From Polaribacter sp. (GTDB taxonomy: Bacteria > Pseudomonadota > Gammaproteobacteria > Pseudomonadales > Cellvibrionaceae): DNA of 18,183 bases. The translations under genes and the position numbers were made by a program. The number at the start of each line of letters is the position of its first letter. Position 1 is the first letter of the stretch. The notes beneath the pieces were generated by a model, which saw only the letters and a list, made by a program, of their open reading frames with translations, was not told the DNA's origin and ran no database searches. The stretch is from assembly GCA_964226685.1 (NCBI GenBank), contig CAXQRU010000078.1, positions 1-18,183 on the forward strand, in the 5' to 3' direction. Positions 1-16,034 of this stretch are shown piece after piece.

Positions 1-20
1 ACACGACGCTCTTCCGATCT
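1..20. other. Residual Illumina TruSeq-type adapter (ACACGACGCTCTTCCGATCT) at the contig terminus
   Basis: Bases 1-20 are identical to the 3' end of the standard Illumina universal adapter (…CTACACGACGCTCTTCCGATCT). Native sequence begins at base 21. Confidence 0.8.
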
Positions 21-21
21 G

Positions 22-77
22 TTACATGTAAGAAAAATAATTATTACATGTAATTTTTGTTGACATGTTACATGTAA
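22..77. promoter_or_regulatory. Three copies of the perfect 10-bp palindrome TTACATGTAA (22-31, 44-53, 68-77), a candidate operator array
   Basis: Direct reading. The copies are identical and their centres are 22 and 24 bp apart, about two helical turns. Copy 2 extends to the 12-bp palindrome ATTACATGTAAT. Copy 3 lies inside the -35/-10 spacer of the promoter below. Confidence 0.6.
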
Positions 78-87
78 TAGCTATAAT
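60..87 (+). promoter_or_regulatory. Sigma70-type promoter with TTGACA (60-65), a 16-nt spacer and TATAAT (82-87). The predicted transcription start falls at or near the ATG at 94, so the mRNA is leaderless.
   Basis: Both hexamers match consensus exactly. No Shine-Dalgarno sequence precedes the ATG at 94, and the -10 ends 6 nt before that ATG. Confidence 0.55.
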
Positions 88-93
88 CGACCT

Positions 94-714
94 ATGATTA
101 AAAAAACATCAGCCTATTATCAACGAAAATACCGCGAGCGCCTGCGAGAACAGGGGCTGGTGAAGCGCGAAGTGTGGGTTAAACCCGAGCACGTTGGGCT
201 TTTGGCGGACATTGAGAAGCAATTGAGAGATCCTTTGCTATTGGATAAACCATCGGTAGGAATCAGTCAAATGAGTGAAACACAAAAATGGACCAACGAT
301 ACCTTGCTCACCGCGCTTGCGAACAGCCCATTGGGCGATCGTATCAGCATTGAAGTGGTCGAGGGTGTAGAGCCAGCGCTCTACATTGTTATGCATGATT
401 ACGGTGATCTACCCCTATTTGCCACCATTGTTGGCGATCAGATCATTGTTGAGGCCGCGCTTTGGCCGGCTGATGCCATAGCCGATAAGGCCGCATTTAA
501 TGAGGTGGTACTAAAGACCCACAAGTATTTTCCTTTATCAACCATCAGCTTAGACACCATGAGCGACGGGGTTGATTATTACCAAATGTTTGGCGCCCTA
601 AGCGCCACATCGACCCTACCCAATGTAGTATTTGAGGTAGAAACCCTGGCTGACAACGTGATTCAAGCGACATCAGCCTATAGTGAATTTTTGAAACCAG
701 ACGCATACGCATAA
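94..714 (+). CDS. Fusion protein with an N-terminal ribbon-helix-helix-like (RepB-regulatory/Arc-like) DNA-binding domain and a C-terminal YjfI-like DUF2170 domain. Putative autoregulator of the operon.
   Basis: 206-aa ORF. The N-terminus YYQRKYRERLREQGLVKREVWVKPEH fits the [YRER..G…V.W.] pattern of small ribbon-helix-helix-like regulators. The segment from the internal MSETQKW onward (…MHDYGDLPLFATIVGDQIIVEAALWP… PLSTISL… YYQMFGALS…) matches, from memory, the motifs of E. coli YjfI/DUF2170. Its stop lies 15 nt before the next gene, which suggests translational coupling. Confidence 0.6.
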   Translation: MIKKTSAYYQRKYRERLREQGLVKREVWVKPEHVGLLADIEKQLRDPLLLDKPSVGISQMSETQKWTNDTLLTALANSPLGDRISIEVVEGVEPALYIVMHDYGDLPLFATIVGDQIIVEAALWPADAIADKAAFNEVVLKTHKYFPLSTISLDTMSDGVDYYQMFGALSATSTLPNVVFEVETLADNVIQATSAYSEFLKPDAYA

Positions 715-729
715 GCGAGGAGCGCAAAA

Positions 730-1416
730 ATGAATATTTTAAAGAAGATGATTACAGCATTGCGCGGCGGCATCAACGAAGCCGGCGAAGCCATTATTGA
801 CACCCAAGCCCTGAGAATCCTAGATCAAGAGATCAGGGATGCTTCCGAAGAGTTAAAACGCTCGAAAGATAGCTTGGCCGAGATTATTGCCAAAGAAAAA
901 CTGGCCAATCAGAAGTGCGATGTCACCAGCAAGAAAATTACAGAGCACGAAGGCTACGCGGTTAAGGCGCTAGAACAGCAAAACGAAACCTTGGCCCTAG
1001 AAGTGGCCGAGAAGATCGCCGAGCTTGAAAATCAACTCGCAAACGAGCAAACTGTCGCCCAAGAATTTGCCCAAAGCGGCAATGACCTGCGGGCCGCAAT
1101 CCTGCAGGCCGAGAACAACTTGCGCCATCTTAAGCAGCAGGTGGATACGGTCAAGGCAACAGAGAGCGTACAGCGTGCTCAAGAAGCGGTGGCCGAGCGC
1201 CATAGCGGTGCCAATAGCAAGATGCGCACAGCAATGGATTCTCTTGAGCGCATTAAAGAGAAGCAAGCACTGAAATCAGCGCAAATGAGTGCAGCCAGGG
1301 AGATGGCTAACGAAACGCCGGAGTCGTCTTTGGCAAGCAAACTGGAAGCGGCAGGCATTACCACCTCAACCAGTGCCAGCGATGTGCTTGAGCGCCTAAA
1401 AAAGAAGGCTAAGTAA
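730..1416 (+). CDS. PspA/IM30/Vipp1-family protein (ESCRT-III-like), YjfJ-like
   Basis: 228 aa. There is an N-terminal amphipathic helix (MNILKKMITALRGGINEAGEAI) and a long coiled coil. It carries the motif …VKATESVQRAQEAVAERHSG… and a tail …AAGITTSTSASDVLERLKKK that I recall from E. coli YjfJ. The ribosome-binding site GAGGAG sits 8 nt upstream. Confidence 0.8.
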   Translation: MNILKKMITALRGGINEAGEAIIDTQALRILDQEIRDASEELKRSKDSLAEIIAKEKLANQKCDVTSKKITEHEGYAVKALEQQNETLALEVAEKIAELENQLANEQTVAQEFAQSGNDLRAAILQAENNLRHLKQQVDTVKATESVQRAQEAVAERHSGANSKMRTAMDSLERIKEKQALKSAQMSAAREMANETPESSLASKLEAAGITTSTSASDVLERLKKKAK

Positions 1417-1429
1417 GGGCCAGCAATAC

Positions 1430-1454
1430 GCACCACTGACCCCAGCAGTGGTGC
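1430..1454 (+). other. Intra-operon stem-loop between the PspA-like and YqiJ-like genes (9-bp stem GCACCACTG/CAGTGGTGC, 7-nt loop). Possible partial terminator or mRNA-stability element.
   Basis: The repeat is perfect but it is followed by an A-rich tract, not a U-rich one, so it is not a canonical intrinsic terminator. Confidence 0.3.
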
Positions 1455-1484
1455 CAATAAAACAGGAATGACAGGAGGGGGGAT

Positions 1485-2195
1485 ATGTTCGCAATATTAT
1501 TAACTGACAAAATGGATGTGTTTTATAAAAACATATTGTCCTTCCCTACCATTGTTTTTAGCATACTATTGTTAATTTGCATCCTATTTTGGCTGGTAGC
1601 CATTCTAGGATTTCTCGACATCTCATTTATGGATCCCGATGTCGACGTTGGAGATGTCGGTGACATTGGAGATGTAGGAGACGTAGGCGGCGACGCCGGC
1701 CCAAGTGCTGTGGCCGGTATCATCCAGCGCTTTGGTCTCAACGGTGTACCGCTAACCATCATTATTACATCCATTTCTTTGATCGGCTGGCTCATTAGCT
1801 TCTATACCGTACACATTCTATTCCCTCTGATTCCAAGCGGCTTACTGACGTGGGTTGCCGGGGTAGGCACTCTATTAGGGGCGACCATCGGCGCCACGTT
1901 TATTACCGCCATGCTCATCAAACCTCTGCGCCCTTTGTTTAAAAAGCTTGAGGTACACCTCGACAAACGCATCGTAGGACAAACGGCCAAAGTGAGAAGC
2001 TCGCGAGTGGACCAAGCGTTTGGTGAGGCTGTTTTAGAAGATGGTGGCGCAGGCTTGATATTAAAAGTTCGCTCAGCCGATCATCAGGTCTATGGCCGAG
2101 GCGATGATGTTGTCATCATTGACTATGTCGAAGCAGATAATACCTTCAAAGTTGTTTCACTTGAGGAATTTCAATCCATGAGATCCTCTATTTAA
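1485..2195 (+). CDS. YqiJ-like inner-membrane protein with a C-terminal NfeD-like OB-fold, the partner of the flotillin
   Basis: 236 aa. The N-terminal half has several hydrophobic transmembrane segments and an acidic loop, DVDVGDVGDIGDVGDVGGD. The C-terminus (VGQTAKVRSS…GAGLILKVRS…GDDVVIIDYVEADNTFKV) is beta-rich, as in NfeD or YqiJ. The gene sits directly upstream of an SPFH/flotillin gene, the arrangement of E. coli yqiJ-yqiK. The ribosome-binding site is AGGAGG. Confidence 0.7.
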   Translation: MFAILLTDKMDVFYKNILSFPTIVFSILLLICILFWLVAILGFLDISFMDPDVDVGDVGDIGDVGDVGGDAGPSAVAGIIQRFGLNGVPLTIIITSISLIGWLISFYTVHILFPLIPSGLLTWVAGVGTLLGATIGATFITAMLIKPLRPLFKKLEVHLDKRIVGQTAKVRSSRVDQAFGEAVLEDGGAGLILKVRSADHQVYGRGDDVVIIDYVEADNTFKVVSLEEFQSMRSSI

Positions 2196-2226
2196 CCATC
2201 GTTTACTAACAAGGAGATAAAACATC

Positions 2227-2289
2227 ATGCAAACCATCACCAAAGGACAATCTCGTCCTACTCATACATTAATGGAGAACACACTATGA
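2227..2289 (+). CDS. Possible 20-codon upstream mini-ORF (MQTITKGQSRPTHTLMENTL). Its TGA stop overlaps the flotillin ATG as ATGA.
   Basis: A strong Shine-Dalgarno sequence, AAGGAG, lies 10 nt upstream. The stop overlaps the start of the next gene. No homology is claimed. It may only be a coupling or leader ORF. Confidence 0.2.
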   Translation: MQTITKGQSRPTHTLMENTL

Positions 2290-4199
2290 GCGAGTACATC
2301 CCACACCTTATGACTTTATTGATCGTCGTCGGGGTGATCTTTGTTGTCCTTTTGGGCTTCATTGCCATCGTTAAGGCTTGGTATATTAAAGTTCCTCAGG
2401 GAACCGCCTTGATTGTTAACGGCATCCGCAACATCAAAGTTAGCTTTACTGGCGCACTGGTTTACCCTGTGATCAATAAAAAGGAATTTATGAAAATATC
2501 CTTAATTACCTTGGAGGTAGATCGCCGAGGTAAGGATGGTTTGATCTGTCAGGATAATATGCGTGCGGATATTACCGTAGCATTTTATCTTCGCGTAAAT
2601 GAAACTGCAGCCGATGTATTAAAAGTTGCCAAATCGTTAGGTGCCGATCGCGCGTCAGATAAAAACGCCGTGAATGAATTATTTAATGCTAAATTTTCTG
2701 AAGCGCTAAAAACCGTGGGCAAGCAAATTGAATTTACCAAGCTGTTTGAAGATCGCTTGGAGTTTCGCGAAAAAATTGTTCAGGTCATCGGTAACGACTT
2801 AAACGGCTATATCTTGGAAGACGTAGCTATCGATTATCTTGAGCAAACCCCAAAAAGTGCGCTAGATCCAAACAATACCATGGATGCTGAAGGTATTCGC
2901 AAGATCACGGAGCTGACAGCTATTCAAAACATAACCACCAACATGCTAGAGCGCGATGAGCAACTAGCCATTAAAAAGAAAGACGTGGAAACCTATGAAG
3001 CCATGCTGGAGCTAGAGCGCCAGGAAGCCGATGCCGCCGCCAGACAAAAGCGCGAAATCGAAACGTTGAAAGCGCGAGAAGAAGCAGAAACCAAAAAAGT
3101 TCAAGAGGAAGAACGCAAAAAAGCGGAATCAGCCACTATTGCCGTTGAGCAAGATCTAGCTGTGCAAATGGAAAATCAAAAGCGTGAAATCGAAGTAGCG
3201 GAACAAAACCGTCAGCGCGCCGTAGTGATTGAAATGGAAAAAGTCACCCGGGCACGCGATCTTGAAATCGTTTCTCGCGAACGTGAAGTTGAGCTGCAAA
3301 GAATCGAGGCTGAAAAAGCCGTCGAGGTGGAAAAGAAAGAAATAGCCAACGTCATTCGCGAGCGTGTAGCAGTGGATAAAACCGTTGCTATCGAAGAAGA
3401 GCGTATTAAAGAAGTGCGTGAAGTGTCAGAGGCTGATCGCTTAAAGCAAGTCCAAGTATTAGAAGCGGAAGCACTTGCTGAACAGGCAAAAGTCAAAGAA
3501 GTGAAAGCGGCTGAAGCACAAGAAATCTCAGCCAAACATAAGGCCCTTGAAATCACAACGATTGCTCAGGCTAAGTTAGAGGCCGCGGCCAAAGAGGCCG
3601 ATGCCAAGAAGAAATTGGCTGAGGCCACCCAAGCAGAGCGTGCAGCCCCCGGTTTAGCCGATGCCAAAGTACAAGAAGCCAAAGCCGAGGCCTTAGAGAA
3701 AGAAGGTTTGGCCGAAGCGCATGTGATCAATGCCAAAGGTAGCGCGGAAGCTGAAGTCATTGCGAGCAAAGGTGATGCCCAAGCGAAAGCGGACAAAGGC
3801 ATTGGTTTGGCGCATGCTGAAGTCACTCGTGAGCAATTTAAAGCTGAAGCCGATGGCTTGGTTGAGAAATTCAATGCTATGGGCACCATGAGCGATGCCG
3901 CTAGACAACATGAGGAATTCCGCATGAGTCTTGAGACCGCGCTCAAAGAAGCACTCGCTTCAATCGACGCCGGCAAAGACATCGCGAAAGAAAATGCGGA
4001 AGTACTGGCCACTGCACTTCAAAGAGCGAAGATCGATATTGTGGGTGGTGAGGATCACTTCTTCAATAACTTTGCGAAAGCCTTGTCGATGGGTAAAGCG
4101 ATTGACGGCTTAGCAGATAAGAGCAGCATGCTGGGCTCGATTATCAGCAAATTTATTGATCGCCCAGAAGATGTGGTTGCTGAAGAATCAGCAGAATAA
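2286..4199 (+). CDS. Flotillin-like SPFH/band-7 protein (YqiK family) with an extended E/A/K-rich coiled coil
   Basis: 637 aa. An N-terminal transmembrane helix (LMTLLIVVGVIFVVLLGFIAIV) is followed by an SPFH core (…ALIVNG… GKDGLICQDNMRADITVAFYLRVNE…). A long EA/KA-repeat coiled coil and a flotillin-type C-terminus follow. Confidence 0.85.
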   Translation: MSEYIPHLMTLLIVVGVIFVVLLGFIAIVKAWYIKVPQGTALIVNGIRNIKVSFTGALVYPVINKKEFMKISLITLEVDRRGKDGLICQDNMRADITVAFYLRVNETAADVLKVAKSLGADRASDKNAVNELFNAKFSEALKTVGKQIEFTKLFEDRLEFREKIVQVIGNDLNGYILEDVAIDYLEQTPKSALDPNNTMDAEGIRKITELTAIQNITTNMLERDEQLAIKKKDVETYEAMLELERQEADAAARQKREIETLKAREEAETKKVQEEERKKAESATIAVEQDLAVQMENQKREIEVAEQNRQRAVVIEMEKVTRARDLEIVSREREVELQRIEAEKAVEVEKKEIANVIRERVAVDKTVAIEEERIKEVREVSEADRLKQVQVLEAEALAEQAKVKEVKAAEAQEISAKHKALEITTIAQAKLEAAAKEADAKKKLAEATQAERAAPGLADAKVQEAKAEALEKEGLAEAHVINAKGSAEAEVIASKGDAQAKADKGIGLAHAEVTREQFKAEADGLVEKFNAMGTMSDAARQHEEFRMSLETALKEALASIDAGKDIAKENAEVLATALQRAKIDIVGGEDHFFNNFAKALSMGKAIDGLADKSSMLGSIISKFIDRPEDVVAEESAE

Positions 4200-4212
4200 T
4201 CTTGCAAGCCCT

Positions 4213-4232
4213 GCACCGGCTCTCGCCGGTGC
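4213..4232 (+). other. Stem-loop (GCACCGGC-tctc-GCCGGTGC) between the flotillin and the giant gene. Candidate attenuator or processing site.
   Basis: The inverted repeat is a perfect 8 bp. No U-tract follows it. Confidence 0.3.
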
Positions 4233-4267
4233 TCATTAAAACTGAGTAAAACGTAGAGGGAGAAAGT

Positions 4268-7200
4268 ATGTCGTCTCAGGATAAATCACAAGCACAAGAC
4301 GATAACGCAATTGTTAATGAAGCGGTTGCTCAAGGTGGCGCATACGAGGTCATTCGCCAACGCCTAGTTGACCAAGCTCAGCAGCTACATAAACACACTC
4401 AAAGCTTAAACGAGGCGCGCATTAGCGAGTTCGGCTCGCCAGACATGAGTGTTTTGGCTCGAGTGCGCGTGCGCACGGAAAATAATTGTGTCGCTAGAGA
4501 TATTGTAGAAGTGGGTCAGCACTTACTGTTTGGTTACAATGTTTTTATAGGGCTCAAGCGCGAGACTAAAGTCGATGATGTTTTTTCTCTTTACACAATT
4601 ACCCAAAACGATGATCAGTACGAACTAACCCCCGTTACCGCCAGCAACACATTTTTAACGGATCCAAGATTTGTCAGCGATTTCGATGAACTCTATCGTT
4701 ACTACAAACACACCAAACTCATCCAGTTATCAGTTCGCCATGGCAAATTGTTAGCGGGTTTTCAAATTGGTGAGAAACTCGAAGATGTTCGGGTATTTCG
4801 TTGGTCAGTATCTGCTGACGGCAAAGATATTAGCTATATTGATAATCGGGGTGAGCGTGACCTTGCCCTACCCCCACCCTACGATTTTGAGTGGGTTAAT
4901 ACGACTCGCGAAGATATTGTGCACAGCCGTCATCCGCATATCAATATTGAAGACACCTTGTTTATCAGTAATAACAAGGGCTTTTTGAATATAAAAATCG
5001 AAGACAATACCGAAGAAGGCATGTCAGTTTTTAGAGAAAAAGTTGAAGATGATACTCAGTCTCTTGATGACCTCTCTGTCAGCTATGCCATAACTGGCAA
5101 GTTAATTTTATTGAAAATATTACCGTATCGAGAGCAAATCTCTCGATACTTTGTTTACAACACGTTGACTCAAACCATTCAACGCATTGATGCCATTGGT
5201 CAATCTTGTGTGCAGCTTCCTGAAGATCACGGCATTATTTTCCCGGGCGGCTATTATTTAGAAAGTGGCGAACACAAAACCTTTGATGAGCAATATACAG
5301 GTTTAATGTTTAAACGCAGTTTTCGATCGCCTAACGGAGAGGATGTATTGTACATTTTCTATGAACCCGTAGAAGGTGTTGTCGGCTTGTTTGCCTACAA
5401 TATGATTAATAAAACCTTAAAAAATCCCATTTATGGTCATGGTTACGCACAGTTTGATAATGGTTTAATCATTATTTTTTCATCGGAAGGCGAGCCAACT
5501 CGCGTTCACCCCATGCAATTATGGCAAACACCTTTTTTTAGCGCCGAGTACGCCAGCGCCCTACCCGATAGCCAAACACCACTTGGTAAAATTGGCAACG
5601 CTGAACTCGTTCGCGGGATTTCGGATTTATTTAGCATTTGTCGAATTGTCGACAATCAATCGGTCTCCATGCGTTTATATGAAGAGCTAACTAGAATTAC
5701 TCAAAAAATATTTGATGACTACTACTGGCTGACTCAAGATAACTTCAATGATATCAAAGATTCGGTCAATCTAATTACTGCAACGGCTGAACTGGTCATT
5801 GATGAGTTCGAAAAAGTTGAGAGCATTCGACAGCAATCGGCCAAGACTTTACAAAAAGCGCAAGAAGAGCAAGAAAAAATTATTAGCCAAGCAAGGCCCG
5901 ATAATTGGGAAAGCGCCGAACAATATGTTAATGCGTTAAGAAAGATTCGCCAGCAACGGGGTCACTTATCGACAATTTCTGATTATCGATACATCGACAA
6001 GAAAAAAATTAGTGATTTAGATCAAGAACTGGTAAAAATTGAAGAGAAATTAAGTGAAAAAACCGTTACCTTCTTGGTGGGAGAAGAGGCTTTAACGCCG
6101 TATTTCACAAAAGTAGAACAATTAGATCACGGCGTAGAAACAGCCAACACGATTGCAGAATTGACACCCATCATTGAAGCCATTGAAGGTACCACGGCAG
6201 GACTCGATGTACTTTCTGAGTTGATGGGCACGCTACAAATAGATGATGCCACCGTGCGCACACGCATCATTGACTCGATTTCTGAAGTCTATGCCAAACT
6301 CAACCAAAGCAAAGCTCAGGCGAATCATCGTAGAAAATCTCTGGGCTCACAAGAAGCGGTTGCTCAATTTAGTGCTCAATTTAAATTGTTTTCTCAAAGC
6401 ATTACAAACGCTCTTGGCTTGGCAACCACACCAGACAAATGTGATGAACAATTATCACGCTTACTTGCTCGGTTAGAAGAGTTAGAAAGCCAATTCAGTG
6501 ACTTTGAAGATTACCTGGCCGATATTATTACCAAAAGGGAAGAAGTGTATCAGGCCTTCGAGGCCCATAAACAACAATTACTCGATGAAAGGCAACGAAA
6601 ATCGCAAGCGGTGATGGAGGCGACCAATCGCATTTTATCGAGCATTGAAAAACGCTCACTAAAATTCACCGACCCCGATGAACTCAATACTTATTTTGCG
6701 TCCGATAGCTTGGTCGCCAAAGTGCGAGAATTTGTTGAGCGCTTAAGAGATTTGAACAGTGCGGTTCAAGCCGATGATGTCGAGGCTCGTTTTAAATCCA
6801 TTAAAGAGCAATCCATTCGCGCCCTTCGAGACAAGACTGATATTTATGAAGAGGGAGGCAATGTGATTAAACTTGGGCCTCGCCATAAATTCAGCGTGAA
6901 TACCCAAGAGCTTGATCTCACCCTTTTCCCGAAGGAGGGGGTCATGAATGTGCATTTGACGGGCACCGATTTCTATGAACCCATTAAAAATGAAGATTTG
7001 GACTCTTTAAAAGCCTATTGGGGTTTGGCGGTCGAATCGGAAACCCCTCAGCTCTATCGAGCTGAATATCTTGCTGGCTCCATTATCCGTGCTGCTCAAA
7101 ACCAAACCGATGGTTTAACGATAGAAATACTCAATACCGCTTTGCTAGATGATAACCATTTAAGCAAGTTAGTTCGAGATTTTGCCACGCCGCGCTATAA

Positions 7201-9700
7201 AGAAGGCTACGAAAAAGGCATTCACGATCACGATGCCACCTTGCTATTGAAAAAATTATTACCGGCTATTGCCAGTGCTGACCTACTCACGTTTGACCCG
7301 ACCAGCCGAGCCTTGGCTCAAGTGTTCTGGGCGAGCATAGAGCAAAGAAATATTTCAGGTATTGCTCACCGAGCTTGGATTGAACAAGCTCAATCAGCCG
7401 TGCAGTTAAATGAAATTTTTGCCAGCCACAAAGCATTGGATTTATTGATTGATGATGTAGAAACGGCGTTAAAGCTGTTTTTAGAGAGACACCCCTTAGC
7501 ACTCGACACCTACCATCAACGCCGAGCGGCGCACTATTTAGTGTTAGAACTTGGGCGCGATAGACTGGACTTTATCACTAGCAAATACGCGGAAAATTTA
7601 GCGGGAGAACTCAAACGTTCGTTAACGGATGAGCAGTGGCGACAGTATCAAAAATCATTAGATAATTTAAGCGGCCAGCCCAACCGGCGTTGGCAATTAA
7701 CCAACACTTGGCTCAATGCCTTAATTGAGAACAAACAACTCGGTCGCCTAGCTCACTACTTATCTGAGGCCATAGCCTTTTTAATTATTCGCGAACCCTT
7801 GAGTCGCCGCTCAGTTGAAGTCGATTTAGAAATTGATGTTCAGGGTTTACTGGGTAATCATAGTCGAATTGTGGATCGAGGCTTACTGCTATCTGTTGAT
7901 AATTTCTTGCAGCGTTTCGAGCAACATTGCACGGAGGTAATCCCCTCTTATCATCGCTATTTAGCATTGCGCCAACAAATCGCCGAGCGCGAACGCAAAC
8001 AGTTAAGGCTAGACTCCTTTAAGCCTAAGCCCTTAAGTTCATTTGTTCGCAACCGGCTCATTAATGAAGCGTATCTACCGATTATCGGGGATAACCTTGC
8101 CAAACAAATGGGCACTGTGGGTGAGAGCAAACGAACCGATTTGATGGGATTATTAATGATGATCTCGCCTCCTGGTTACGGTAAAACCACATTGATGGAA
8201 TACGTTGCCAGCCGCTTGGGTTTGATTTTCATGAAAATCAACTGCCCCTCCTTGGGTCACGATGTAACCTCGCTAGATCCTGCACAAGCGCCAAATGCAA
8301 CCGCCAAACAAGAGTTGAATAAAATCAATCTGTCCTTTGAGATGGGTAATAACGTTATGCTTTATCTGGATGATATTCAGCACACTCATCCAGAATTTTT
8401 GCAAAAATTTATTTCATTGTGTGATGGTACGCGGCGAATTGATGGTGTTTGGAACGGCGAGACCAAAACCTATGATATGCGCGGGCGTAAATTTTGTGTG
8501 GTGATGGCAGGCAACCCCTATACCGAGTCGGGCGAGGTTTTCAAAATTCCTGATATGCTTGCCAACCGCGCTGACATTTATAATCTGGGTGATATCTTAG
8601 GCGGCATGGATGAACAATTTGCCTTGAGTTATATTGAAAACGCACTCACTTCCAACCCTGTGCTCGCACCACTTGCACTGAGAGAATTGAGCGATGTCTA
8701 TAAACTGGTTCGCATGAGCCAGGGTGAGAATGTCCCTAGCACGGATTTAAGCTACAGTTATTCGGGTGCTGAGATTAACGAGATTACACAAGTCTTGAAA
8801 AAATTATTTGTGATCCAAGATGTCGTGCTCAAAATTAATCAGCAATATATTGCCTCAGCCGCGCAAGATGATAAGTATCGGACCGAACCGGCCTTTAAGT
8901 TACAGGGTAGTTATCGAAACATGAATAAAATGGCTGAAAAAGTTTCGGCCGTTATGAACGATGAAGAACTGATGGCGATGATTGCCGATCACTATTTGGG
9001 CGAGGCACAACTATTAACAACCGGCGCCGAGGCGAATTTATTAAAGCTTTCTGAACTTAGAGGCAATATGACACAGGAGCAGCACGCTCGCTGGCAAGCC
9101 ATTAAAGCCGACTTCCTGCGCAATAAAGCCATGGGCGGCGATGAAACCGATACTGGCAACAAAATGGTTGTGCAGCTTAATGATATCGTCAATAGCTTAA
9201 AACAGTTGGGTGTGGCAACGCAAAGTAGCGGGCAATCATTGACGAGCGTGGTGGAGTCGATCAATCATCAAAATAGCGAATCGCAACAGGCGGCTATTGA
9301 CCAATTAAGCAATATTGTAAAAGGTTTGCAGCAGCTAGGAAAAATCACCAATAGTAACGGCAAATCCCTAGCCGCACTGGTTGAAAACCTAGAAAAAGAA
9401 GAGCCTTTATTGCTGGATGAAGCGACTCAACCGCAGTCTGAAAGTTCACAAATGGTTGAAGCACTGGTTCAGGCTTTGGAAAAAATTGAAACCGTTGGCG
9501 AGGGTGCGCCCAATGAGATTGCACATTCTCTAGCGCAATTGACCCAGGAAATCGATCAAATCGCCAAGCCCTTGATCAAGAAGATGGATAAAAAATTATC
9601 GGTTGATTTGAGAACTTACTTTAGAGTCACTGAATTATCCAAAAAAATTATTGAAATGAATCAAAAATCGCCGGCAAAAAAGGCAACCAAAGGAGAGTAG
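4268..9700 (+). CDS. Giant multidomain protein (1810 aa) with a beta-rich N-terminal region, a long helical middle, a C-terminal AAA+ ATPase core (AAA_5/MoxR-like) and C-terminal tandem repeats. Family not recognised.
   Basis: The 5433-nt ORF has no stops and a ribosome-binding site GGGAGA. Walker A is MMISPPGYGKTTLMEY (nt ~8159-8197). Walker B is VMLYLDDIQ (nt ~8357-8380). Sensor-1-like VVMAGNP and an Arg-containing LANRADIY follow. The C-terminus has about three degenerate ~43-aa repeats (…IVNSLKQLGVATQSSGQSLTSVVESI / …IVKGLQQLGKITNSNGKSLAALVENL…). Confidence 0.8.
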   Translation: MSSQDKSQAQDDNAIVNEAVAQGGAYEVIRQRLVDQAQQLHKHTQSLNEARISEFGSPDMSVLARVRVRTENNCVARDIVEVGQHLLFGYNVFIGLKRETKVDDVFSLYTITQNDDQYELTPVTASNTFLTDPRFVSDFDELYRYYKHTKLIQLSVRHGKLLAGFQIGEKLEDVRVFRWSVSADGKDISYIDNRGERDLALPPPYDFEWVNTTREDIVHSRHPHINIEDTLFISNNKGFLNIKIEDNTEEGMSVFREKVEDDTQSLDDLSVSYAITGKLILLKILPYREQISRYFVYNTLTQTIQRIDAIGQSCVQLPEDHGIIFPGGYYLESGEHKTFDEQYTGLMFKRSFRSPNGEDVLYIFYEPVEGVVGLFAYNMINKTLKNPIYGHGYAQFDNGLIIIFSSEGEPTRVHPMQLWQTPFFSAEYASALPDSQTPLGKIGNAELVRGISDLFSICRIVDNQSVSMRLYEELTRITQKIFDDYYWLTQDNFNDIKDSVNLITATAELVIDEFEKVESIRQQSAKTLQKAQEEQEKIISQARPDNWESAEQYVNALRKIRQQRGHLSTISDYRYIDKKKISDLDQELVKIEEKLSEKTVTFLVGEEALTPYFTKVEQLDHGVETANTIAELTPIIEAIEGTTAGLDVLSELMGTLQIDDATVRTRIIDSISEVYAKLNQSKAQANHRRKSLGSQEAVAQFSAQFKLFSQSITNALGLATTPDKCDEQLSRLLARLEELESQFSDFEDYLADIITKREEVYQAFEAHKQQLLDERQRKSQAVMEATNRILSSIEKRSLKFTDPDELNTYFASDSLVAKVREFVERLRDLNSAVQADDVEARFKSIKEQSIRALRDKTDIYEEGGNVIKLGPRHKFSVNTQELDLTLFPKEGVMNVHLTGTDFYEPIKNEDLDSLKAYWGLAVESETPQLYRAEYLAGSIIRAAQNQTDGLTIEILNTALLDDNHLSKLVRDFATPRYKEGYEKGIHDHDATLLLKKLLPAIASADLLTFDPTSRALAQVFWASIEQRNISGIAHRAWIEQAQSAVQLNEIFASHKALDLLIDDVETALKLFLERHPLALDTYHQRRAAHYLVLELGRDRLDFITSKYAENLAGELKRSLTDEQWRQYQKSLDNLSGQPNRRWQLTNTWLNALIENKQLGRLAHYLSEAIAFLIIREPLSRRSVEVDLEIDVQGLLGNHSRIVDRGLLLSVDNFLQRFEQHCTEVIPSYHRYLALRQQIAERERKQLRLDSFKPKPLSSFVRNRLINEAYLPIIGDNLAKQMGTVGESKRTDLMGLLMMISPPGYGKTTLMEYVASRLGLIFMKINCPSLGHDVTSLDPAQAPNATAKQELNKINLSFEMGNNVMLYLDDIQHTHPEFLQKFISLCDGTRRIDGVWNGETKTYDMRGRKFCVVMAGNPYTESGEVFKIPDMLANRADIYNLGDILGGMDEQFALSYIENALTSNPVLAPLALRELSDVYKLVRMSQGENVPSTDLSYSYSGAEINEITQVLKKLFVIQDVVLKINQQYIASAAQDDKYRTEPAFKLQGSYRNMNKMAEKVSAVMNDEELMAMIADHYLGEAQLLTTGAEANLLKLSELRGNMTQEQHARWQAIKADFLRNKAMGGDETDTGNKMVVQLNDIVNSLKQLGVATQSSGQSLTSVVESINHQNSESQQAAIDQLSNIVKGLQQLGKITNSNGKSLAALVENLEKEEPLLLDEATQPQSESSQMVEALVQALEKIETVGEGAPNEIAHSLAQLTQEIDQIAKPLIKKMDKKLSVDLRTYFRVTELSKKIIEMNQKSPAKKATKGE

Positions 9701-9714
9701 TATGAGTTATTTAG

Positions 9715-9985
9715 TTAAGGAACCTCTGATCAAGTCTAGCGTGCCTCTGGCCTAGCAGGTTTGTTCGAGATCTAGGCGCTTCTTTGCAGCAATGTCTAGA
9801 CCTTGCAAAAAGGAGCAACAACGATATCGGACAAACCTGCAGGCCCCGAAGGGCGTGGCCAAAACGTCCATATGCTGCGTTGAACTTCTTGCAAAGGACT
9901 AAGGCCATTAGACTGCGAAGTCCGCCTTGCCTATGAACGTTTTGACTCACGCAGAGCCGGCTAGACTTGATCAGAGGTTCCTTAA
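9715..9985. mobile_element. 271-bp element bounded by perfect 26-bp terminal inverted repeats (TTAAGGAACCTCTGATCAAGTCTAGC at 9715-9740, and its reverse complement at 9960-9985). MITE-like or a structured non-coding RNA.
   Basis: Direct reading. The two repeats match 26/26. The interior has nested complementary segments, for example GCAGGTTTGTTCGA (about 9755-9768) paired with TCGGACAAACCTGC (about 9827-9840). It has no ORF. It lies 14 nt after the stop of the giant gene. Confidence 0.55.
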
Positions 9986-10194
9986 GTTATAAATCCATTC
10001 AATGTTTTGCTAACGATGGCCGTTTGCTAGTTGATGAACTGGATGAATTATTATCCATCGCCTTGCGCGACGGCGTCGTTGATGAAGACGAACAGCGCGT
10101 GCTGAACAATATCATCGATCGATTAAATCCTGATGAACTCACCACAGACATGCTGGATAAAATTGCCGAGGTAAAAAAAGCCATTAATGCCTAA
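9967..10194 (+). CDS. Small acidic ORF with a TerB-like motif (…DGRLLVDELDELLSIALRDGVVDEDEQRVLNNIIDRL…). No ATG start; it begins inside the right inverted repeat. Either a 3' gene remnant or a small protein with a non-canonical start.
   Basis: The only in-frame start candidates are TTG and GTG codons, and there is no clear ribosome-binding site. The D/E-rich helical repeat resembles TerB/DjlA-N-type domains from memory. The stem-loop with the 12-bp stem follows. Confidence 0.3.
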   Translation: MIRGSLSYKSIQCFANDGRLLVDELDELLSIALRDGVVDEDEQRVLNNIIDRLNPDELTTDMLDKIAEVKKAINA

Positions 10195-10201
10195 TCGACC
10201 A

Positions 10202-10232
10202 AATAAGGCTACCCATTTTCGGTAGCCTTATT
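10202..10232. terminator. Bidirectional intrinsic terminator between convergent genes: a perfect 12-bp stem AATAAGGCTACC/GGTAGCCTTATT with loop CATTTTC
   Basis: Direct reading. The stem contains A/T-rich ends that supply U-tracts on both strands. It lies between the 3' ends of 9967-10194 (+) and dprA (-). Confidence 0.7.
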
Positions 10233-10246
10233 CATCTTAATTCACG

Positions 10247-11338
10247 TTAAACTCGCTCAAAACCCCAACGACTGTAACGGATCAAGCCTTTTAATTCCAA
10301 CATCATTAAGCCCGAAGCCAGCTCACTGGAATCTAAGCAAGTCATATCGGTTAATAGCTCCAAAGATACGGTATCAAATCCCATAGCATCGTAAATGGTT
10401 TGCTCGTTCGGCGCTAAACCTTCGCTGGATCGTGCCTCGTGAGCAAAGGCCTTAATGGGACTCAATACATCCTCCAAATGCTCGGCAATATCCTCTGGCG
10501 ACTCGGCCAAAATGGCGCCCTGGCGAATTAATTCGTGTGGCCCTTTAGACTGTGGATTTTGGATGGAACCTGGCAAGGCAAACACTAAGCGATTTTGCTC
10601 ATTGGCCAAACGCGCGGTAATTAGTGAGCCGCTTTTAATGGCAGCCTCCACGACAATGGTGGCACAACTTAAGCCGCTAATGATGCGATTACGCTCAGGG
10701 AAGTGGCCGGCACGGGGCGGCGTGGTCGGTAAAAACTCGCTCACCAACGCACCCCCATGTTCTAAAATTTCCTCAGCCAAACGCTCGTGACGCTTGGGGT
10801 ACACTGAGTCCACGCCCGTTGCCATCACCGCAATGGTGGGCTTGCGCTGATCCACCACGGCCTGATGGGCGGCACCATCAATACCGATCGCCAAACCACT
10901 GGTGACCACAAAACCGCTCAGAGCCAATGATTGCGCAAAATAGCGCGCGTTGCGCGCGCCGCCGGCACTGGGGTGGCGCGATCCCACAATGGCCAACTGC
11001 GGCAAGGTTAATGGGCTAACATCGCCGCGCACAAATAACACCAAGGGCGGTCGCACGGTTTGTGCCAACAAGGGCGGGTAATGTTCACTGCCGTAAGCGA
11101 CCAGTGTGGCTCCAAAGCGTTCTAACTTTTCCATCACCGCCTGAGCTTGGCGATGCAATGGGCTGGCAGCCCCTGCCGCTTGATAATTGCCTAAGGCTTG
11201 TTTGGCTTTGTCATTGATGGTGAGGGCCTGTGGGTCAGCGTTTAAGATCGCTTCAGGGGTTTGAAAGTGCTCAAGCAGTTGCCAAGCGGTATTGCGGCCA
11301 ACGCCGGGGAGTAATTGCAATAATAAATAGGGGGACAT
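10247..11338 (-). CDS. dprA: DNA processing protein A (DprA/Smf)
   Basis: 363 aa. It has the DprA Rossmann-like core (…LAIVGSRHPSAGGARNARYFAQSLALSGFVVTSGLAIGIDGAAHQAVV… TIAVMATGVDSVYPKRH… ALPGSIQNPQSKGPHELIRQGA…). The ribosome-binding site is AAGGA. Its GC content is visibly higher than that of the flanking genes. Confidence 0.9.
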   Translation of the reverse strand: MSPYLLLQLLPGVGRNTAWQLLEHFQTPEAILNADPQALTINDKAKQALGNYQAAGAASPLHRQAQAVMEKLERFGATLVAYGSEHYPPLLAQTVRPPLVLFVRGDVSPLTLPQLAIVGSRHPSAGGARNARYFAQSLALSGFVVTSGLAIGIDGAAHQAVVDQRKPTIAVMATGVDSVYPKRHERLAEEILEHGGALVSEFLPTTPPRAGHFPERNRIISGLSCATIVVEAAIKSGSLITARLANEQNRLVFALPGSIQNPQSKGPHELIRQGAILAESPEDIAEHLEDVLSPIKAFAHEARSSEGLAPNEQTIYDAMGFDTVSLELLTDMTCLDSSELASGLMMLELKGLIRYSRWGFERV

Positions 11339-11598
11339 AGTTCATCCTTGAATTAAATTAAATCACCAGTGTAACCAAAAATTCTGGTTCGCTCAATTGG
11401 TATCTAGGCCCTTTCTCAAAATTCAATTGGCTCGCTTGGGAGACTCTTCACATGTCACAAAACTGTCATAAAAAAGTCATCCCCATCAGGTAGAATGTAA
11501 AGTGTAGTACCACCTCAAGCCACCTTTTCGTTTTCGTACTACTTAGGCTTACTCTCAACCCTCCCTATCTATACAAGGAATTTTTTCAAGGAGAAATC

Positions 11599-13665
11599 AT
11601 GAAACCTGAAACCGCAGCTGGTGTCAGGGTAGATACTCTGCACCAACAAGATCCTCCTACGTATTTAGGGGATCTAGCCAAAAACCAACTTGCCGTCAGA
11701 GGCCCTGTAAGAGCCAATGACCCAAGAGCACTTAACCAACTCCACAACCGCATGGAGAAATTTGCACCATTGGGTAGCGAAACGGATCGAGCCACGGCTC
11801 CCAGTAACTTTGTTAGTGGTGTCTTTGCTATCGCAGCGACAACTCTGGCTGCCGTTACTCTGCCGGTGCCAGCGTTTGCGGTAGCATCGGTGGGTCTTTT
11901 AGCTCGCTCTTACGTTTCACAACGCGCAGAAATGCGCAAGAAACTATTGGCTAGCAATAAAGACTCGGTCAATGCTTTCCAGCGAATGAAGGCCGCAAGG
12001 ACTTCAAGAGCTGAAGCTAAGACTCAAGGCCTAGCGTTTAGCCTCAAGAGTTGCTCAAAGATAATGGCTTGGCGACAAGTCAGAATCAGTGCGGCGAGTA
12101 TACCCTTGCTTACAGCTATTGGCTTGGGTATTGGCAGCGCCGCTGGCACCATGGGCTTATCGCTGGTGGGAATAGCCGCTGTGGCTGCTATCTCCTTGGC
12201 CGTGAGCTTGGCCGCTCAAGCTTTAGCAGCCTCCAAAGCTGACAAAGCCGCGCTCGAAGCTGAAGTACAACAAGAAGCGCTTCAACAGTATTCTCTTGGG
12301 TTACCCACCCACGGTGAGAATGGAGAAATCCTGCCTCACTCAGACAATGAGAATATCAAAGAAGTGCCCGAGGCGCGCCGAGCCTACCTAGTAGACAAGG
12401 TCGTTCGAGAGCTTAACCGCAACCCCGCCATTGTAGCGCCACCACCGGCTACCATTGACAGGGCTCCTTCTACCGATGATGACCAGTATTCATTGACCCT
12501 GGATGAGGATGGAGCAATCCTACCCAACCCACGACCAGTGAATATTATCGGCAACCCTGACAATCTAGTCCCAGATGATGGGTTTATTACGTTTGAAGGG
12601 GAGCAGTATGGGGATCCCGTTGGAGATGATCCAGATCCTCAAGTGGGTGCTCTTCCTGCCGGTGCATTTCCTGTGGGAGCGTTAATTGGCGGAGCCGTTC
12701 AGTCTGTGGTTTCTGACCACAGTTCTGCTGGAGCAAGAGGCAATGCCTCAAGTGTGGGTACTGTGGCCAGTGAACGGACACAAAAGCCATTTCGGGGGGG
12801 ATTTTTCAAAAGCCTACAGGTGTTTGCGCGTTCGCACACACGCCTCTTAGGCTTTGGAATGAATCCTTTTAAGGAACCCAGTGAAAATGACTTGGTCTCT
12901 TACCGAAATGCGGTACACCGCTCCAACCAGGTCGCCAATCGCTTTACCGATAATGGTAAACGCTTTGGTGCCTATGTGGGTGCGGGTGCCGGGGCTTTTG
13001 GCGCCGTTGGTGCTGCGGGTATTTGGTTAAAACACGGTAGTGATCAAGATTTCGAGTTTGATGGTGCCCATCGGTTATTTGGCCCATTAGGTGGAATCTT
13101 GTCGGCGATATCAAGCTGTTACAGTTTGTTCGCCTCCTCGGATGTAAAGCCTGTTGAACTTAGCGATAAGCTCAACAGTACTCTACAACCAAGGCGCTAC
13201 CAAGCGAGTCCAGAGCAACTTGACAGGGTCAACCTAATCAAGAGCTGGGGCAAGTGTAAACCATCGCTCAATGAGCGGCGCAAAGCCGCGGGCATTAACG
13301 TGGCTACGGCCGCAGCCTTAACCGCTTTGACGGTGGCGTCAATACCCGCTGGTGGCATTCCCATTGCCATTGTGGGTTTTGTTGCGATTGGCACTGCGGT
13401 TGCGAATATGGCGTCTTCGACCTATCTAGCAGGTTGGCGTTACAATAAGGCGGTGATCAAACAGAAATGTTTTGATGATTGCGTTAAGTTGGCGGCCCAG
13501 GGGCGGCTTTTTACAGGTCGGGAGTATACTCCTGAAGCTCGTAACAAGCTCAAATCTTGGGCAAATCCGAAAGGCGGACCTCTGAGTTTTAAAGAGGTGC
13601 GACTTGAGGCTTTGGATGCCGAACGTCATATTAATAAGCTGCGTTCTCAACTGCTGATTCGCTAG
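11599..13665 (+). CDS. 688-aa hypothetical protein with several Gly/Ala-rich hydrophobic (glycine-zipper-like) segments and a Pro/Asp-rich linker. No family recognised.
   Basis: The ORF is long and free of stops. The ribosome-binding site AAGGAG lies 6 nt upstream. Its hydrophobic segments include IAATTLAAVTLPVPAFAVASVGLLA, LLTAIGLGIGSAAGTMGLSLVGIAAVAAISLAVSLAAQALAA, AYVGAGAGAFGAVGAAGIWL and VATAAALTALTVASIPAGGIPIAIVGFVAIGTAVANMA. A strong terminator follows. Confidence 0.7.
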   Translation: MKPETAAGVRVDTLHQQDPPTYLGDLAKNQLAVRGPVRANDPRALNQLHNRMEKFAPLGSETDRATAPSNFVSGVFAIAATTLAAVTLPVPAFAVASVGLLARSYVSQRAEMRKKLLASNKDSVNAFQRMKAARTSRAEAKTQGLAFSLKSCSKIMAWRQVRISAASIPLLTAIGLGIGSAAGTMGLSLVGIAAVAAISLAVSLAAQALAASKADKAALEAEVQQEALQQYSLGLPTHGENGEILPHSDNENIKEVPEARRAYLVDKVVRELNRNPAIVAPPPATIDRAPSTDDDQYSLTLDEDGAILPNPRPVNIIGNPDNLVPDDGFITFEGEQYGDPVGDDPDPQVGALPAGAFPVGALIGGAVQSVVSDHSSAGARGNASSVGTVASERTQKPFRGGFFKSLQVFARSHTRLLGFGMNPFKEPSENDLVSYRNAVHRSNQVANRFTDNGKRFGAYVGAGAGAFGAVGAAGIWLKHGSDQDFEFDGAHRLFGPLGGILSAISSCYSLFASSDVKPVELSDKLNSTLQPRRYQASPEQLDRVNLIKSWGKCKPSLNERRKAAGINVATAAALTALTVASIPAGGIPIAIVGFVAIGTAVANMASSTYLAGWRYNKAVIKQKCFDDCVKLAAQGRLFTGREYTPEARNKLKSWANPKGGPLSFKEVRLEALDAERHINKLRSQLLIR

Positions 13666-13683
13666 CATCAGCTTCTACCATCA

Positions 13684-13725
13684 GCATCACACCCCTCCAA
13701 AAGGTGTGGTGCTGTTTTTTCTTTT
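13684..13725 (+). terminator. Rho-independent terminator (GCATCACACC…GGTGTGGTGC stem with one mismatch, then TGTTTTTTCTTTT)
   Basis: Direct reading. A GC-rich hairpin is followed by a T-run 18 nt after the stop at 13665. Confidence 0.75.
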
Positions 13726-13876
13726 GTGGACAGGCACGATGCAAGGGATCTTTAAAAATATAAAGATGAACTAAAGGTAAAGGTCGGGGACAGGCATCAC
13801 TGAAAAATCTTTACGAGTAATTTTGAGGAGTCAGCAAACAGTAGCAAAGCCCATCCATAGGCTATCTATTTTTTGA

Positions 13877-14686
13877 TCAAAAACCAGCCACGCCCATGCT
13901 ATGGCGCTTAATCTCAGTAATTCTCTCGACCAAAAAATTGCGCTTACGATAAGATTGGCATAAGCCCATTTTGCGATAAATATTTTTTTGATGGGTTTTG
14001 AGCGTATTAACGGATTTGTTCAACTCCTTGCTGACACTTTCACGATCCCCTGACTTCGAATAAGCAATCGCCACTTTGGCCTCTTCTGAGGTCAACGAGT
14101 ATCGATCAATCAAGGTCGCCCCGATCACTTGCTCCTCGATACAATGGGTAAATTTTGGGTTTTTCAAAATACCCCACCGAGCAGAGCGCTGAATATGAAT
14201 GGCCACTCGATTCAAAGTATCCATCGCTTCGTGAGTCACGCTATTTGGGTCAACCAATAGGCTTAAGGTGGTATAACAATTACCGTATTCAAAAAGGCGC
14301 AGCACAATGTAGTCCTCGACTTGAGCTTCTAACTCAACGCGACCACGAACCAAAGAGCGGCTGTACACCTTAAATTTGCTATTTTTATCAAAACTCAAGG
14401 TGCCAGAGTTTAACTGCAAGTTAACCTGAGCCCAGACATCCAGTTCGCCGAAATACTCGTTGTAACGCTGGACAAAATCGTGCTCCATATTGACCAAAAA
14501 AGAATGCTCAAAAAAGCCCTGATCCAGCAACACTTCACCGGTTTTCATGTTGCGATGCAAAATAGCCGCTTTGCCGCCAGAAAACAAAGAACACAAGTCT
14601 TGCAAGACGATATGCCAATGGCTAGGTTTATCGGCTGCCTGATAAATGCTATCAATAAGATGATTAATATTTTTTTCTGAAATCAT
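13877..14686 (-). CDS. LuxR/GerE-family transcriptional regulator with an uncharacterised ~190-aa N-terminal domain
   Basis: The C-terminus …LTSEEAKVAIAYSKSGDRESVSKELNKSVNTLKTHQKNIYRKMGL… fits the LuxR-type helix-turn-helix. The N-terminal domain is neither a receiver nor an obvious autoinducer-binding domain. The ORF opens with a GTG at 14695, but the first ATG is at 14686 (MISEKN…). Confidence 0.75.
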   Translation of the reverse strand: MISEKNINHLIDSIYQAADKPSHWHIVLQDLCSLFSGGKAAILHRNMKTGEVLLDQGFFEHSFLVNMEHDFVQRYNEYFGELDVWAQVNLQLNSGTLSFDKNSKFKVYSRSLVRGRVELEAQVEDYIVLRLFEYGNCYTTLSLLVDPNSVTHEAMDTLNRVAIHIQRSARWGILKNPKFTHCIEEQVIGATLIDRYSLTSEEAKVAIAYSKSGDRESVSKELNKSVNTLKTHQKNIYRKMGLCQSYRKRNFLVERITEIKRHSMGVAGF

Positions 14687-15155: not shown

Positions 15156-15183
15156 TTGCTTTGTCAGAAAAAGCCTCTATACT
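15156..15183 (+). promoter_or_regulatory. Candidate sigma70 promoter (TTGCTT, 16-nt spacer, TATACT) about 120 nt upstream of the 15304 gene
   Basis: Hexamer match only. It lies in a 590-bp AT-rich divergent intergenic region. Confidence 0.25.
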
Positions 15184-15303
15184 CGACAATGCTCAACCAT
15201 AGTTGGGCATTTTTCAAACTGAGTTTCACCTTGCCAAGCCACCTCGGTGGAGAAACTCGCATCTCTGATGCTGGCATAAACGATCATTTTGAAAGGATAT
15301 AAA

Positions 15304-15987: not shown

Positions 15988-16034
15988 CTTTCTTCAACCT
16001 GAGGGGCTTTGCCCCCTCTTCTTTCTTTAAATAA

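Follow-up and report, generated by a model that had tools for sequence, protein, structure and literature searches.

The locus analyzed here raises the question of which task a protein of 1810 amino acids (aa) fulfils when its ATPase core follows a far longer, non-catalytic N-terminal part. The protein is encoded on contig CAXQRU010000078.1 (assembly GCA_964226685.1, deposited as Polaribacter sp. and placed in the Cellvibrionaceae by GTDB), of which we analyzed positions 1 to 18,183, a stretch of 18,183 nucleotides (nt) referred to as the window. Here, its gene is the last of five on one strand, in the order DUF2170, PspA, YqiJ/NfeD, band-7/flotillin and ATPase, an order shared by 46 related loci. 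Judged from sequence, and with about even confidence, we favor the reading in which the protein belongs, as its BacE-type member, to a membrane-stress operon of five genes and would act as an ATP-driven remodeller of flotillin/NfeD (and PspA) assemblies.

Family membership and domain anatomy of the ATPase

The gene corresponds to a single ATG-initiated open reading frame (ORF; 4268..9700, plus strand, stop codon included), just as an earlier sequence-only reading of the window had called it, and is preceded by a GAGGGAG Shine-Dalgarno sequence 6 nt 5' of the start. A search of 5.8 billion proteins returned more than 4400 homologues, the best 120 of which show 61-70% identity at lengths of ~1750-1830 aa, most of them spanning 98-100% of the query. 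Full-length family members of 1590-2036 aa are colinear with the window protein down to 26% identity. A filter-free HMMER search with aa 1-1200 yielded 1375 representatives of clusters formed at 50% identity (439 at E <= 1e-30), whereby distant representatives align to query residues ~20 to ~1200 and relatives at 26-50% identity cover the entire N-terminal 1200 aa. The Pseudomonas aeruginosa cluster of the family holds 3222 member sequences, and further members occur in Proteus, Providencia, Stenotrophomonas and many environmental phyla. Composition is smooth along the ORF, which is real, intact and non-chimeric.

The regions outside the ATPase core, for which the sequence-only reading could name no family, are strongly matched by two Pfam families. 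PF12458 (DUF3686) covers aa 40-486 (E 5e-194, 645.3 bits at a cut-off of 25) over profile positions 2-448 of 448, and PF25472 (DUF7902) covers aa 607-691 (E 4e-29, 101.2 bits at a cut-off of 26). They are followed at aa 1296-1423 by matches to AAA (34.2 bits, cut-off 21.2) and AAA_5 (25 bits, above cut-off). The homologues listed carry the same precomputed families (DUF3686, DUF7902, AAA), so that an architecture taken for peculiar turns out to be invariant throughout a large catalogued family, annotated as 'DNA repair ATPase' in thousands of genomes. Likewise, P. aeruginosa PA3728/PA14_16190 (BacE) shares this Pfam architecture, and the window ATPase has 54-58% identity with Pseudomonas homologues. 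The window protein itself is new, with no entry of the databases searched exceeding 69-70% identity to it; its family has already been described computationally. A full-text literature search for 'DUF3686' returned no papers.

Two AlphaFold2 models were built on a 96-sequence alignment, one of aa 1-1200 and one of aa 1101-1810, with a mean predicted local distance difference test score (pLDDT) of 78.7 and 73.8, respectively. Following two predicted N-terminal helices (aa 5-55), the core of DUF3686 (4439..5542, plus strand, aa 58-425) is modelled as a beta-propeller of about seven four-stranded blades. The 27-28 beta-strands predicted between aa 61 and 420 bear out the beta-rich N-terminus noted earlier, and Foldseek matches this part of the model to propellers in the PDB at probabilities of 0.99-1.0 (Ski8, CyRPA, prolyl oligopeptidase). 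Foldseek also returns chains that combine a propeller with a helical solenoid (nuclear pore Nup proteins, IFT-A, COPI, clathrin heavy chain), at TM-scores of ~0.1, and because of these low scores only the propeller is secure. The resemblance to coat proteins, a signal dominated by the propeller, was therefore kept as a lead only.

The middle of the protein (aa 426-1255) is mainly helical in the model, in agreement with the ~800-aa helical stretch recognized before. It opens with a long-helix region (5543..6847, plus strand, aa 426-860) which includes DUF7902 (nt 6086-6340) and shows very long predicted helices within aa 426-856, two of them 51 residues long. A short beta motif (GGNVIKLGPRHKFSVNTQELDLT...; 6848..6982, plus strand, aa 861-905) follows, which holds invariant residues and is modelled at low confidence (pLDDT 37-60), and then a compact all-helical domain (7058..7792, plus strand, aa 931-1175; pLDDT mostly >90) located before the ATPase core. 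Residues 1180-1246 are predicted to form a small beta element and a 37-residue helix. Conservation, taken as the mean frequency of the commonest residue per region among the 96 family sequences, is highest in the AAA+ core (0.91), followed by the beta motif (0.81) and the propeller (0.78); the other helical regions reach 0.56-0.75, and a linker at aa 1641-1750 only 0.15. Separate Pfam scans of two segments, aa 490-1250 from the middle and aa 1440-1810 from the tail, gave DUF7902 as the only significant match. A PhoU_div match to the variable tail was rejected (23.1 bits at a cut-off of 24.4), as was the idea that the helical middle is a PspA- or flotillin-like module, since hhalign comparisons with alignments of PspA, flotillin, YqiJ and DUF2170 gave probabilities below 1%.

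The AAA+ alpha/beta domain occupies aa 1256-1443 (8033..8596, plus strand). All four motifs of the sequence-only reading lie where it had placed them, at about aa 1295-1450: Walker A SPPGYGKTT (nt 8165-8191, aa 1300-1308, with GYGKT at 1303-1307), Walker B LYLDD (nt 8360-8374, aa 1365-1369), VVMAGNP with the sensor-1 residue Asn1416 (nt 8498-8518, aa 1411-1417) and LANRADIY with Arg1434 (nt 8558-8581, aa 1431-1438). The AAA+ lid and a conserved C-terminal helical domain follow (8597..9187, plus strand, aa 1444-1640; from the model and conservation). Among the 96 close sequences, no variation is seen at residues G1303, G1305, K1306, T1307, D1368, D1369, N1416 and R1434. The catalytic residues, including K1306, D1368, D1369, N1416 and R1434, are likewise invariant in 120 of 120 distant homologues at ~30% identity, drawn from Bacteroidota, Verrucomicrobiota, Planctomycetota and Sumerlaeota. 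An 18-residue loop after strand 2 (NCPSLGHDVTSLDPAQAP) is nearly invariant and represents a candidate pore or substrate loop.

The C-terminal model shows the alpha/beta core plus lid, and thus confirms, at the level of structure prediction, the AAA+ fold proposed for this part of the protein. Its clade is harder to name. PDB sequence searches with the protein and with the 96-sequence profile gave only P-loop-level matches (RuvB, Rix7, p97; E >= 0.01) besides coiled-coil noise, so that sequence alone cannot assign it. By Foldseek, the nearest folds are the MoxR-type NorQ, CbbQ and midasin at 12-15% identity, which, along with the AAA_5 match above cut-off, favors the MoxR/AAA_5-like type suggested earlier, albeit in a divergent form. 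Between helix 3 and the sensor-1 strand (strand 4), DSSP of the model assigns residues 1390-1403 to a beta-hairpin, a predicted pre-sensor-1 hairpin. This predicted hairpin would place the ATPase outside the classical AAA clade, unlike Vps4. No hairpin is seen by DSSP in the invariant loop aa 1326-1343, where MoxR carries its helix-2 insert. The sensor-1/Arg-finger region fits the pattern NP...G...(I/L)P..L..R, which we take to be the MoxR consensus.

C-terminal to the lid, three degenerate ~43-aa repeats had been proposed, two of which hold. The tandem repeats at aa 1634-1676 and 1677-1719 (9167..9424, plus strand), with which the variable linker aa 1641-1750 starts, share 16 of 43 identities, and their best 30-aa window scores 75 compared to 26 +/- 5 (maximum 47) in 300 shuffles. 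The third was rejected, as 18% of shuffles attain its score. Searched with a two-copy profile, only the 11 closest homologues show the repeat, once or twice each, and many members of ~1645 aa (Proteus, Providencia, Xenorhabdus, Gilliamella) stop before the repeat region; the linker consists of 61% gaps across the 96 family members. Hence, the sequences indicate a real, recent and lineage-specific duplication in a variable linker, which sets the window protein apart from P. aeruginosa BacE and is no family-defining module; the conserved oligomerisation or protein-binding role once considered for the repeats is lost with it. The protein ends in a C-terminal helix (..MDKKLSVDLRT..; 9518..9697, plus strand, aa 1751-1810), modelled at aa 1751-1800 and present in long family forms only. 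Of the 48 loci with a DUF2170 and PspA gene pair, 24 showed its conserved part (aa 1751-1805, nt 9518-9682), compared to 2 of the 21 without. This correlation was rejected as evidence, because phmmer detection of a 60-aa tail is confounded with phylogenetic closeness.

Flotillin and NfeD as constant partners

The first gene of the operon (94..714, plus strand) encodes a BacA/YjfI-like protein of 206 aa, composed of a basic N-terminal part of ~55 aa and a DUF2170 (CesT-like) domain (Pfam E 1.6e-47). The NCBIfam BacA model matches its aa 1-204 at E 2.3e-86 and 288.5 bits, just below the 300-bit equivalog cut-off. A PspA/IM30 (ESCRT-III-like) protein of 228 aa follows (730..1416, plus strand; Pfam PspA_IM30 E 3.2e-44), and then a YqiJ/NfeD-like membrane protein of 236 aa (1485..2195, plus strand), which has no significant Pfam match; its Dysgonomonas counterpart carries YqiJ_N. 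The flotillin-like SPFH protein of 637 aa (2286..4199, plus strand) possesses an N-terminal transmembrane segment, a Band_7 domain and a long coiled coil rich in E, A and K. Hereby, Band_7 is detected (E 1.4e-7) only if aa 1-230 are scanned alone, the whole-protein scan giving no match even at E <= 10; presumably, the coiled coil triggers the HMMER bias filter and thereby hides the domain. The precomputed Pfam tables are empty for the flotillin homologues at distant loci as well. The ATPase itself shows neither a transmembrane segment nor a protease domain.

To place this arrangement in context, ORFs were called in 80 loci taken from one-genome-per-species contigs and searched with the window proteins, and six distant homologues were added (86 loci in all). 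A flotillin homologue lies immediately 5' of the ATPase gene in 75 of 75 loci with enough flank, and YqiJ is present in 73 of the 80, as an ORF 5' of the flotillin gene and also in distant phyla. The dyad of DUF2170 and PspA genes occurs in 48 of ~69 loci and is divergent in two. YqiJ and flotillin also precede the distant homologues (~30% identity) of Aureliella (Planctomycetota), a verrucomicrobial genome, Hymenobacter and Dysgonomonas (both Bacteroidota). In a Sumerlaeia genome (Sumerlaeota) flotillin alone lies upstream, and no YqiJ gene was found. On the strength of these counts, flotillin/NfeD is the constant partner and PspA a frequent accessory. The pairing raised by the sequence-only reading therefore stands for flotillin and NfeD/YqiJ, essentially always, and fails as a rule for PspA, which is found in about two thirds of the sampled loci.

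The P. aeruginosa bac operon shows the same order of DUF2170/BacA, PspA/BacB, NfeD/BacC, flotillin/BacD and ATPase/BacE. Reverse transcription PCR revealed that this biofilm-associated cluster, bacABCDEF including PA14_16190 (bacE), is transcribed as one unit (PMC10948618). Unlike that operon, the window has no PLD-like bacF gene downstream of the ATPase and instead carries an interrupted small TerB-like ORF. Accessory genes in the related loci are rhomboid (19), PLD-like (9), TelA (3) and small, sub-threshold TerB-like genes (15), so the variable accessory genes are also membrane-related. From its position after the ATPase in locus L021, the PLD-like gene is presumably P. aeruginosa bacF.

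Further genes were seen at single loci. In a verrucomicrobial locus (L083, 1151-3750), the strand opposite to the YqiJ-flotillin-ATPase triad encodes, beside it, PspA and a distinct AAA ATPase of 559 aa; the latter may be the other PspA-associated AAA+ type named by Ravi et al. Mobile or defence-type genes are located within or beside some operons (L039, 8009-9906; L058, 7653-9188; L084, 11094-13801). At two loci, the flotillin gene is separated from the ATPase gene by inserted genes, two of the PD-(D/E)XK transposase family and one with an NYN domain, and in Hymenobacter GmrSD_N and AAA_23 genes are found downstream of the ATPase.

Proposed remodelling of membrane scaffolds and its alternatives

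Starting from the domain architecture, the invariant catalytic motifs, the MoxR-like fold and the flotillin/NfeD gene linkage across phyla observed here, we propose that the BacE-type ATPase would be a cytoplasmic MoxR-like AAA+ mechanoenzyme, with the BacA-like partner as regulator or chaperone. The C-terminal AAA+ modules would form a ring, in which the invariant Arg1434 could serve as trans-acting finger. The propeller and the ~800-aa helical arm would dock on the flotillin/NfeD scaffold at the inner membrane face and, where present, on PspA polymers, and ATP hydrolysis would remodel, disassemble or recycle these flotillin/NfeD/PspA assemblies during envelope stress. What we infer is the ring state, the identity of the clients and whether the reaction runs towards assembly or disassembly. 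Functional parallels would be Vps4 with its substrate ESCRT-III, or the MoxR ATPases with their client complexes. A remodelling role was also proposed by Ravi et al. (mSystems 2024, PMC11237479), who described the operon type computationally, suggested ATP-dependent membrane remodelling and found abbreviated flotillin-YqiJ-ATPase operons to be more widely distributed. The published co-transcription of the P. aeruginosa cluster (PMC10948618), its induction upon phage infection (PMC12041424) and the membrane-related accessory genes of the related loci also speak for this reading.

Three known systems bear on this proposal. As in the case of Vps4/CdvC and ESCRT-III, the window encodes a AAA+ protein beside a member of the ESCRT-III superfamily, here PspA, and by analogy a Vps4-like remodelling role for BacE-type ATPases is plausible (PMC11237479). 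Unlike Vps4, the window ATPase shows no MIT domain in Pfam scans, and its linkage is tighter to flotillin than to PspA. Bacteria have been said to lack a Vps4-like ATPase (PMC7619361).

In the HflK/C-FtsH complex, a SPFH cage encloses a AAA+ protease at the inner membrane. The window system resembles it in that a SPFH-family scaffold would be paired functionally with a AAA+ machine; however, its ATPase, which has neither the transmembrane segment nor the protease domain of FtsH, belongs to another AAA+ clade, and its SPFH partner is of the flotillin/YqiK type and accompanied by an NfeD partner. The MoxR-type proteins (NorQ, CbbQ, RavA, midasin; AAA_5) provide the best structural matches, and a pre-sensor-1 hairpin is predicted in the window ATPase; both would be remodellers of specific protein complexes. 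They differ in that the window ATPase carries a 1250-aa N-terminal propeller/helical extension, compared to ~250-270 aa for the entire matched MoxR, NorQ and CbbQ chains, and shows no helix-2 insert hairpin in the model.

Several observations weigh against a MoxR-like remodeller of flotillin assemblies. With the ATPase model as query, Foldseek gives weak matches (E ~1e-3), which are distributed among several AAA+ clades. Walker B reads DD where MoxR and classical AAA+ motors usually have DE, and no VWA/MIDAS protein, the partner type of MoxR, is encoded among the conserved neighbours (DUF2170, PspA, YqiJ, flotillin, rhomboid, PLD, TelA, TerB-like). Moreover, Aureibacter, one of the six distant homologues, has no flotillin neighbour, and the phenotypes of P. 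aeruginosa flotillin (paFlo3) mutants are only mild (PMC13086221). Literature searches on YqiK/YqiJ/flotillin with ATPase and on SPFH/NfeD with AAA+ returned nothing on BacE-type ATPases, and the papers found report no ATPase activity, oligomerisation, flotillin or PspA contact, biochemistry or structure for them. Given the identity of 12-15%, the DD in Walker B and the missing VWA partner gene, 'MoxR-like' is the best label on offer for a domain that is a divergent relative rather than a typical member.

The Walker B motif also feeds an alternative, in which the ATPase would be a nucleotide-dependent switch or scaffold (STAND/ORC-like) whose propeller and arms sense a membrane or protein signal and which, upon binding nucleotide, assembles into a static platform that organizes flotillin microdomains. 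Many STAND NTPases are generally known to carry such an hhhhDD Walker B, and a weak Pfam AAA_22 match as well as the very large non-catalytic regions would suit this function. We nevertheless regard it as rather unlikely, as the best structural matches are MoxR-type motors, the Arg finger lies in an invariant MoxR-type NP...G...IPD.L.NR motif, and Pfam scans detected neither a winged-helix/MHD module nor an effector domain.

A role in anti-phage defence or abortive infection, in which the ATPase senses infection and acts with nearby nucleases or phospholipases, appears improbable to us. PA3728-PA3732 are up-regulated in phage-infected P. aeruginosa cells (PMC12041424), a PLD-like gene follows the ATPase in nine loci, and the GmrSD_N and AAA_23 genes of Hymenobacter as well as the inserted NYN and PD-(D/E)XK genes would fit a defence module. 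However, PADLOC matches neither ATPase, flotillin, NfeD nor BacA, and PspA only weakly and with coiled-coil-type models; the PD-(D/E)XK genes are transposase-family insertions; and the ATPase gene has the appearance of a conserved chromosomal gene, kept in a fixed operon by many genera, and not of a variable island gene. It is also general knowledge that Psp-type operons are induced by any membrane stress.

More doubtful still is the function that the database name implies. Pfam describes DUF3686 as 'ATPase involved in DNA repair', which NCBI names follow, weak RuvB_N matches occur (E 0.002-0.01), and dprA is located downstream in the window. Yet the RuvB signal reaches 15.9 bits at an NCBIfam cut-off of 282 and 18.2 at the Pfam RuvB_N cut-off of 27, and extends over only ~40-44 residues at the P-loop. 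No DNA-binding, nuclease or helicase domain was detected in Pfam scans, the full-text search found no paper that mentions DUF3686, the conserved neighbours are all membrane proteins, and dprA is convergent with the operon, lies beyond a terminator-like hairpin and was found beside no homologue. The BacE-type ATPase is thus probably not a DNA repair ATPase, and we would give that role very little credence.

Lastly, the assembly chimera or fusion artefact feared by the sequence-only reading, to which the contig start might lend some weight (window 1-20, ACACGACGCTCTTCCGATCT, which we take to be untrimmed Illumina TruSeq read-1 adapter (its 3' part), so that the contig ends were evidently not cleaned), is effectively refuted by thousands of independent homologues of 1600-1900 aa, colinear along their entire length, and by the smooth composition of the ORF.

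Operon control, downstream region and meaning of the family

Upstream of the first operon gene, a sigma-70 consensus promoter TTGACA-16-TATAAT with 12 of 12 hexamer matches is located at 60..87 (plus strand). It is overlapped by three 10-bp palindromes, TTACATGTAA, at positions 22-31, 44-53 and 68-77, which constitute a putative operator. Related loci totalling 1.81 Mb contain the motif T[TC]ACATGT[AG]A 82 times, and 75 of these matches fall within ~150 nt of a bacA start. Of 48 bacA loci, 41 carry it upstream of bacA, usually twice at a distance of 21-24 bp, and in the 21 loci without bacA it never precedes YqiJ. By its sequence and distribution the motif resembles a conserved operator tied to bacA, and as TYACATGTRA it is common to the window and the Pseudomonas bac operon; the paper on BacA makes no mention of a palindrome operator. 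In contrast to the sigma-54 promoter proposed for P. aeruginosa, the window promoter is the perfect sigma-70 one; the 93 nt preceding the operon hold no sigma-54 site, and sigma-54 matches in the window are no commoner than in shuffles. Both the PLD-like sixth gene and the sigma-54 promoter are variable features among family members.

BacA orthologues share a strongly conserved basic N-terminal part of ~55 aa (K.SA.YQR.YR.RLREQGLVKKEVWILPEN..L...E..LR; window 94-288, aa 1-65), which is weakly matched by UrfF ('plasmid repression protein F') and by MazE-like proteins. The crystallised P. aeruginosa BacA of 146 residues (PDB 8q8o) matches aa 62-202 of the window protein only and thus comes without this basic domain; in the P. 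paraeruginosa locus, the ORF of 8q8o runs further upstream (L021, 5713-5892), directly 3' of two palindromes. Judging from these comparisons, the N-terminal domain is a candidate DNA-binding domain for the palindromes. The bacA-tied palindromes over the promoter, along with the conserved basic domain, suggest that BacA is a DNA-binding autorepressor, which would fit the published phenotype of a bacA mutant that over-accumulates the other Bac proteins (PMC10948618).

The ATPase stop codon is immediately followed by an insertion of 297 bp (9702..9998), which has 39-nt terminal inverted repeats (85% complementary) and resembles a miniature inverted-repeat transposable element; a second copy was found neither in the window nor in the 86 loci. 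At its 5' end, the small TerB-like ORF (9967..10194, plus strand) is interrupted by this insertion; it comprises 75 aa as now readable, and its TerB match (E 5.8e-5) is just below the cut-off. The ORF follows the pattern ..SIQCFANDG.L...EL..LL.IA.RDGV.D..E..VL..I.. and has tblastn matches in 15 related loci, mostly adjoining the ATPase gene (after it, or between ATPase and flotillin), with intact versions of 76-79 aa in L020 (15391-15621) and L025 (9622-9861). Elsewhere, it is thus a conserved accessory gene of the operon. A hairpin with a 12-bp stem (10202..10232), a likely terminator, separates the operon from dprA. Rfam gave nothing near any gathering score for the region downstream of the ATPase ORF. 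Further on, an ORF of 688 aa (11599-13665, plus strand) has no Pfam or PADLOC match and lies in a region richer in G+C (~0.51-0.53) than the ATPase gene (0.40-0.45).

The BacE-type family could bear on the question of how bacteria disassemble or recycle PspA/Vipp1 polymers and SPFH/flotillin cages. It is the most consistently flotillin-linked ATPase seen here. Its annotation as a DNA repair protein is misleading, and PA3728 is listed among the genes recurrently mutated in cystic fibrosis isolates (PMC8190622). As a tentative and less probable extension of the remodelling proposal, the family may represent the missing ATP-driven remodelling or uncoating machine for flotillin domes and PspA polymers, a MoxR-like ring with six propeller-plus-helix arms that would be the functional counterpart of Vps4/NSF at a different evolutionary origin. 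Since Pfam already lists the family and a description of the operon type appeared in 2024, the value of the present analysis lies in confirmation and refinement, not in discovery. It provides handles in the form of domain boundaries, the catalytic residues K1306, D1368/D1369, N1416 and R1434, and flotillin/NfeD as constant partner. In line with an idea already present in the literature, the BacE-type ATPases are a credible candidate for the missing bacterial remodeller of membrane scaffolds.

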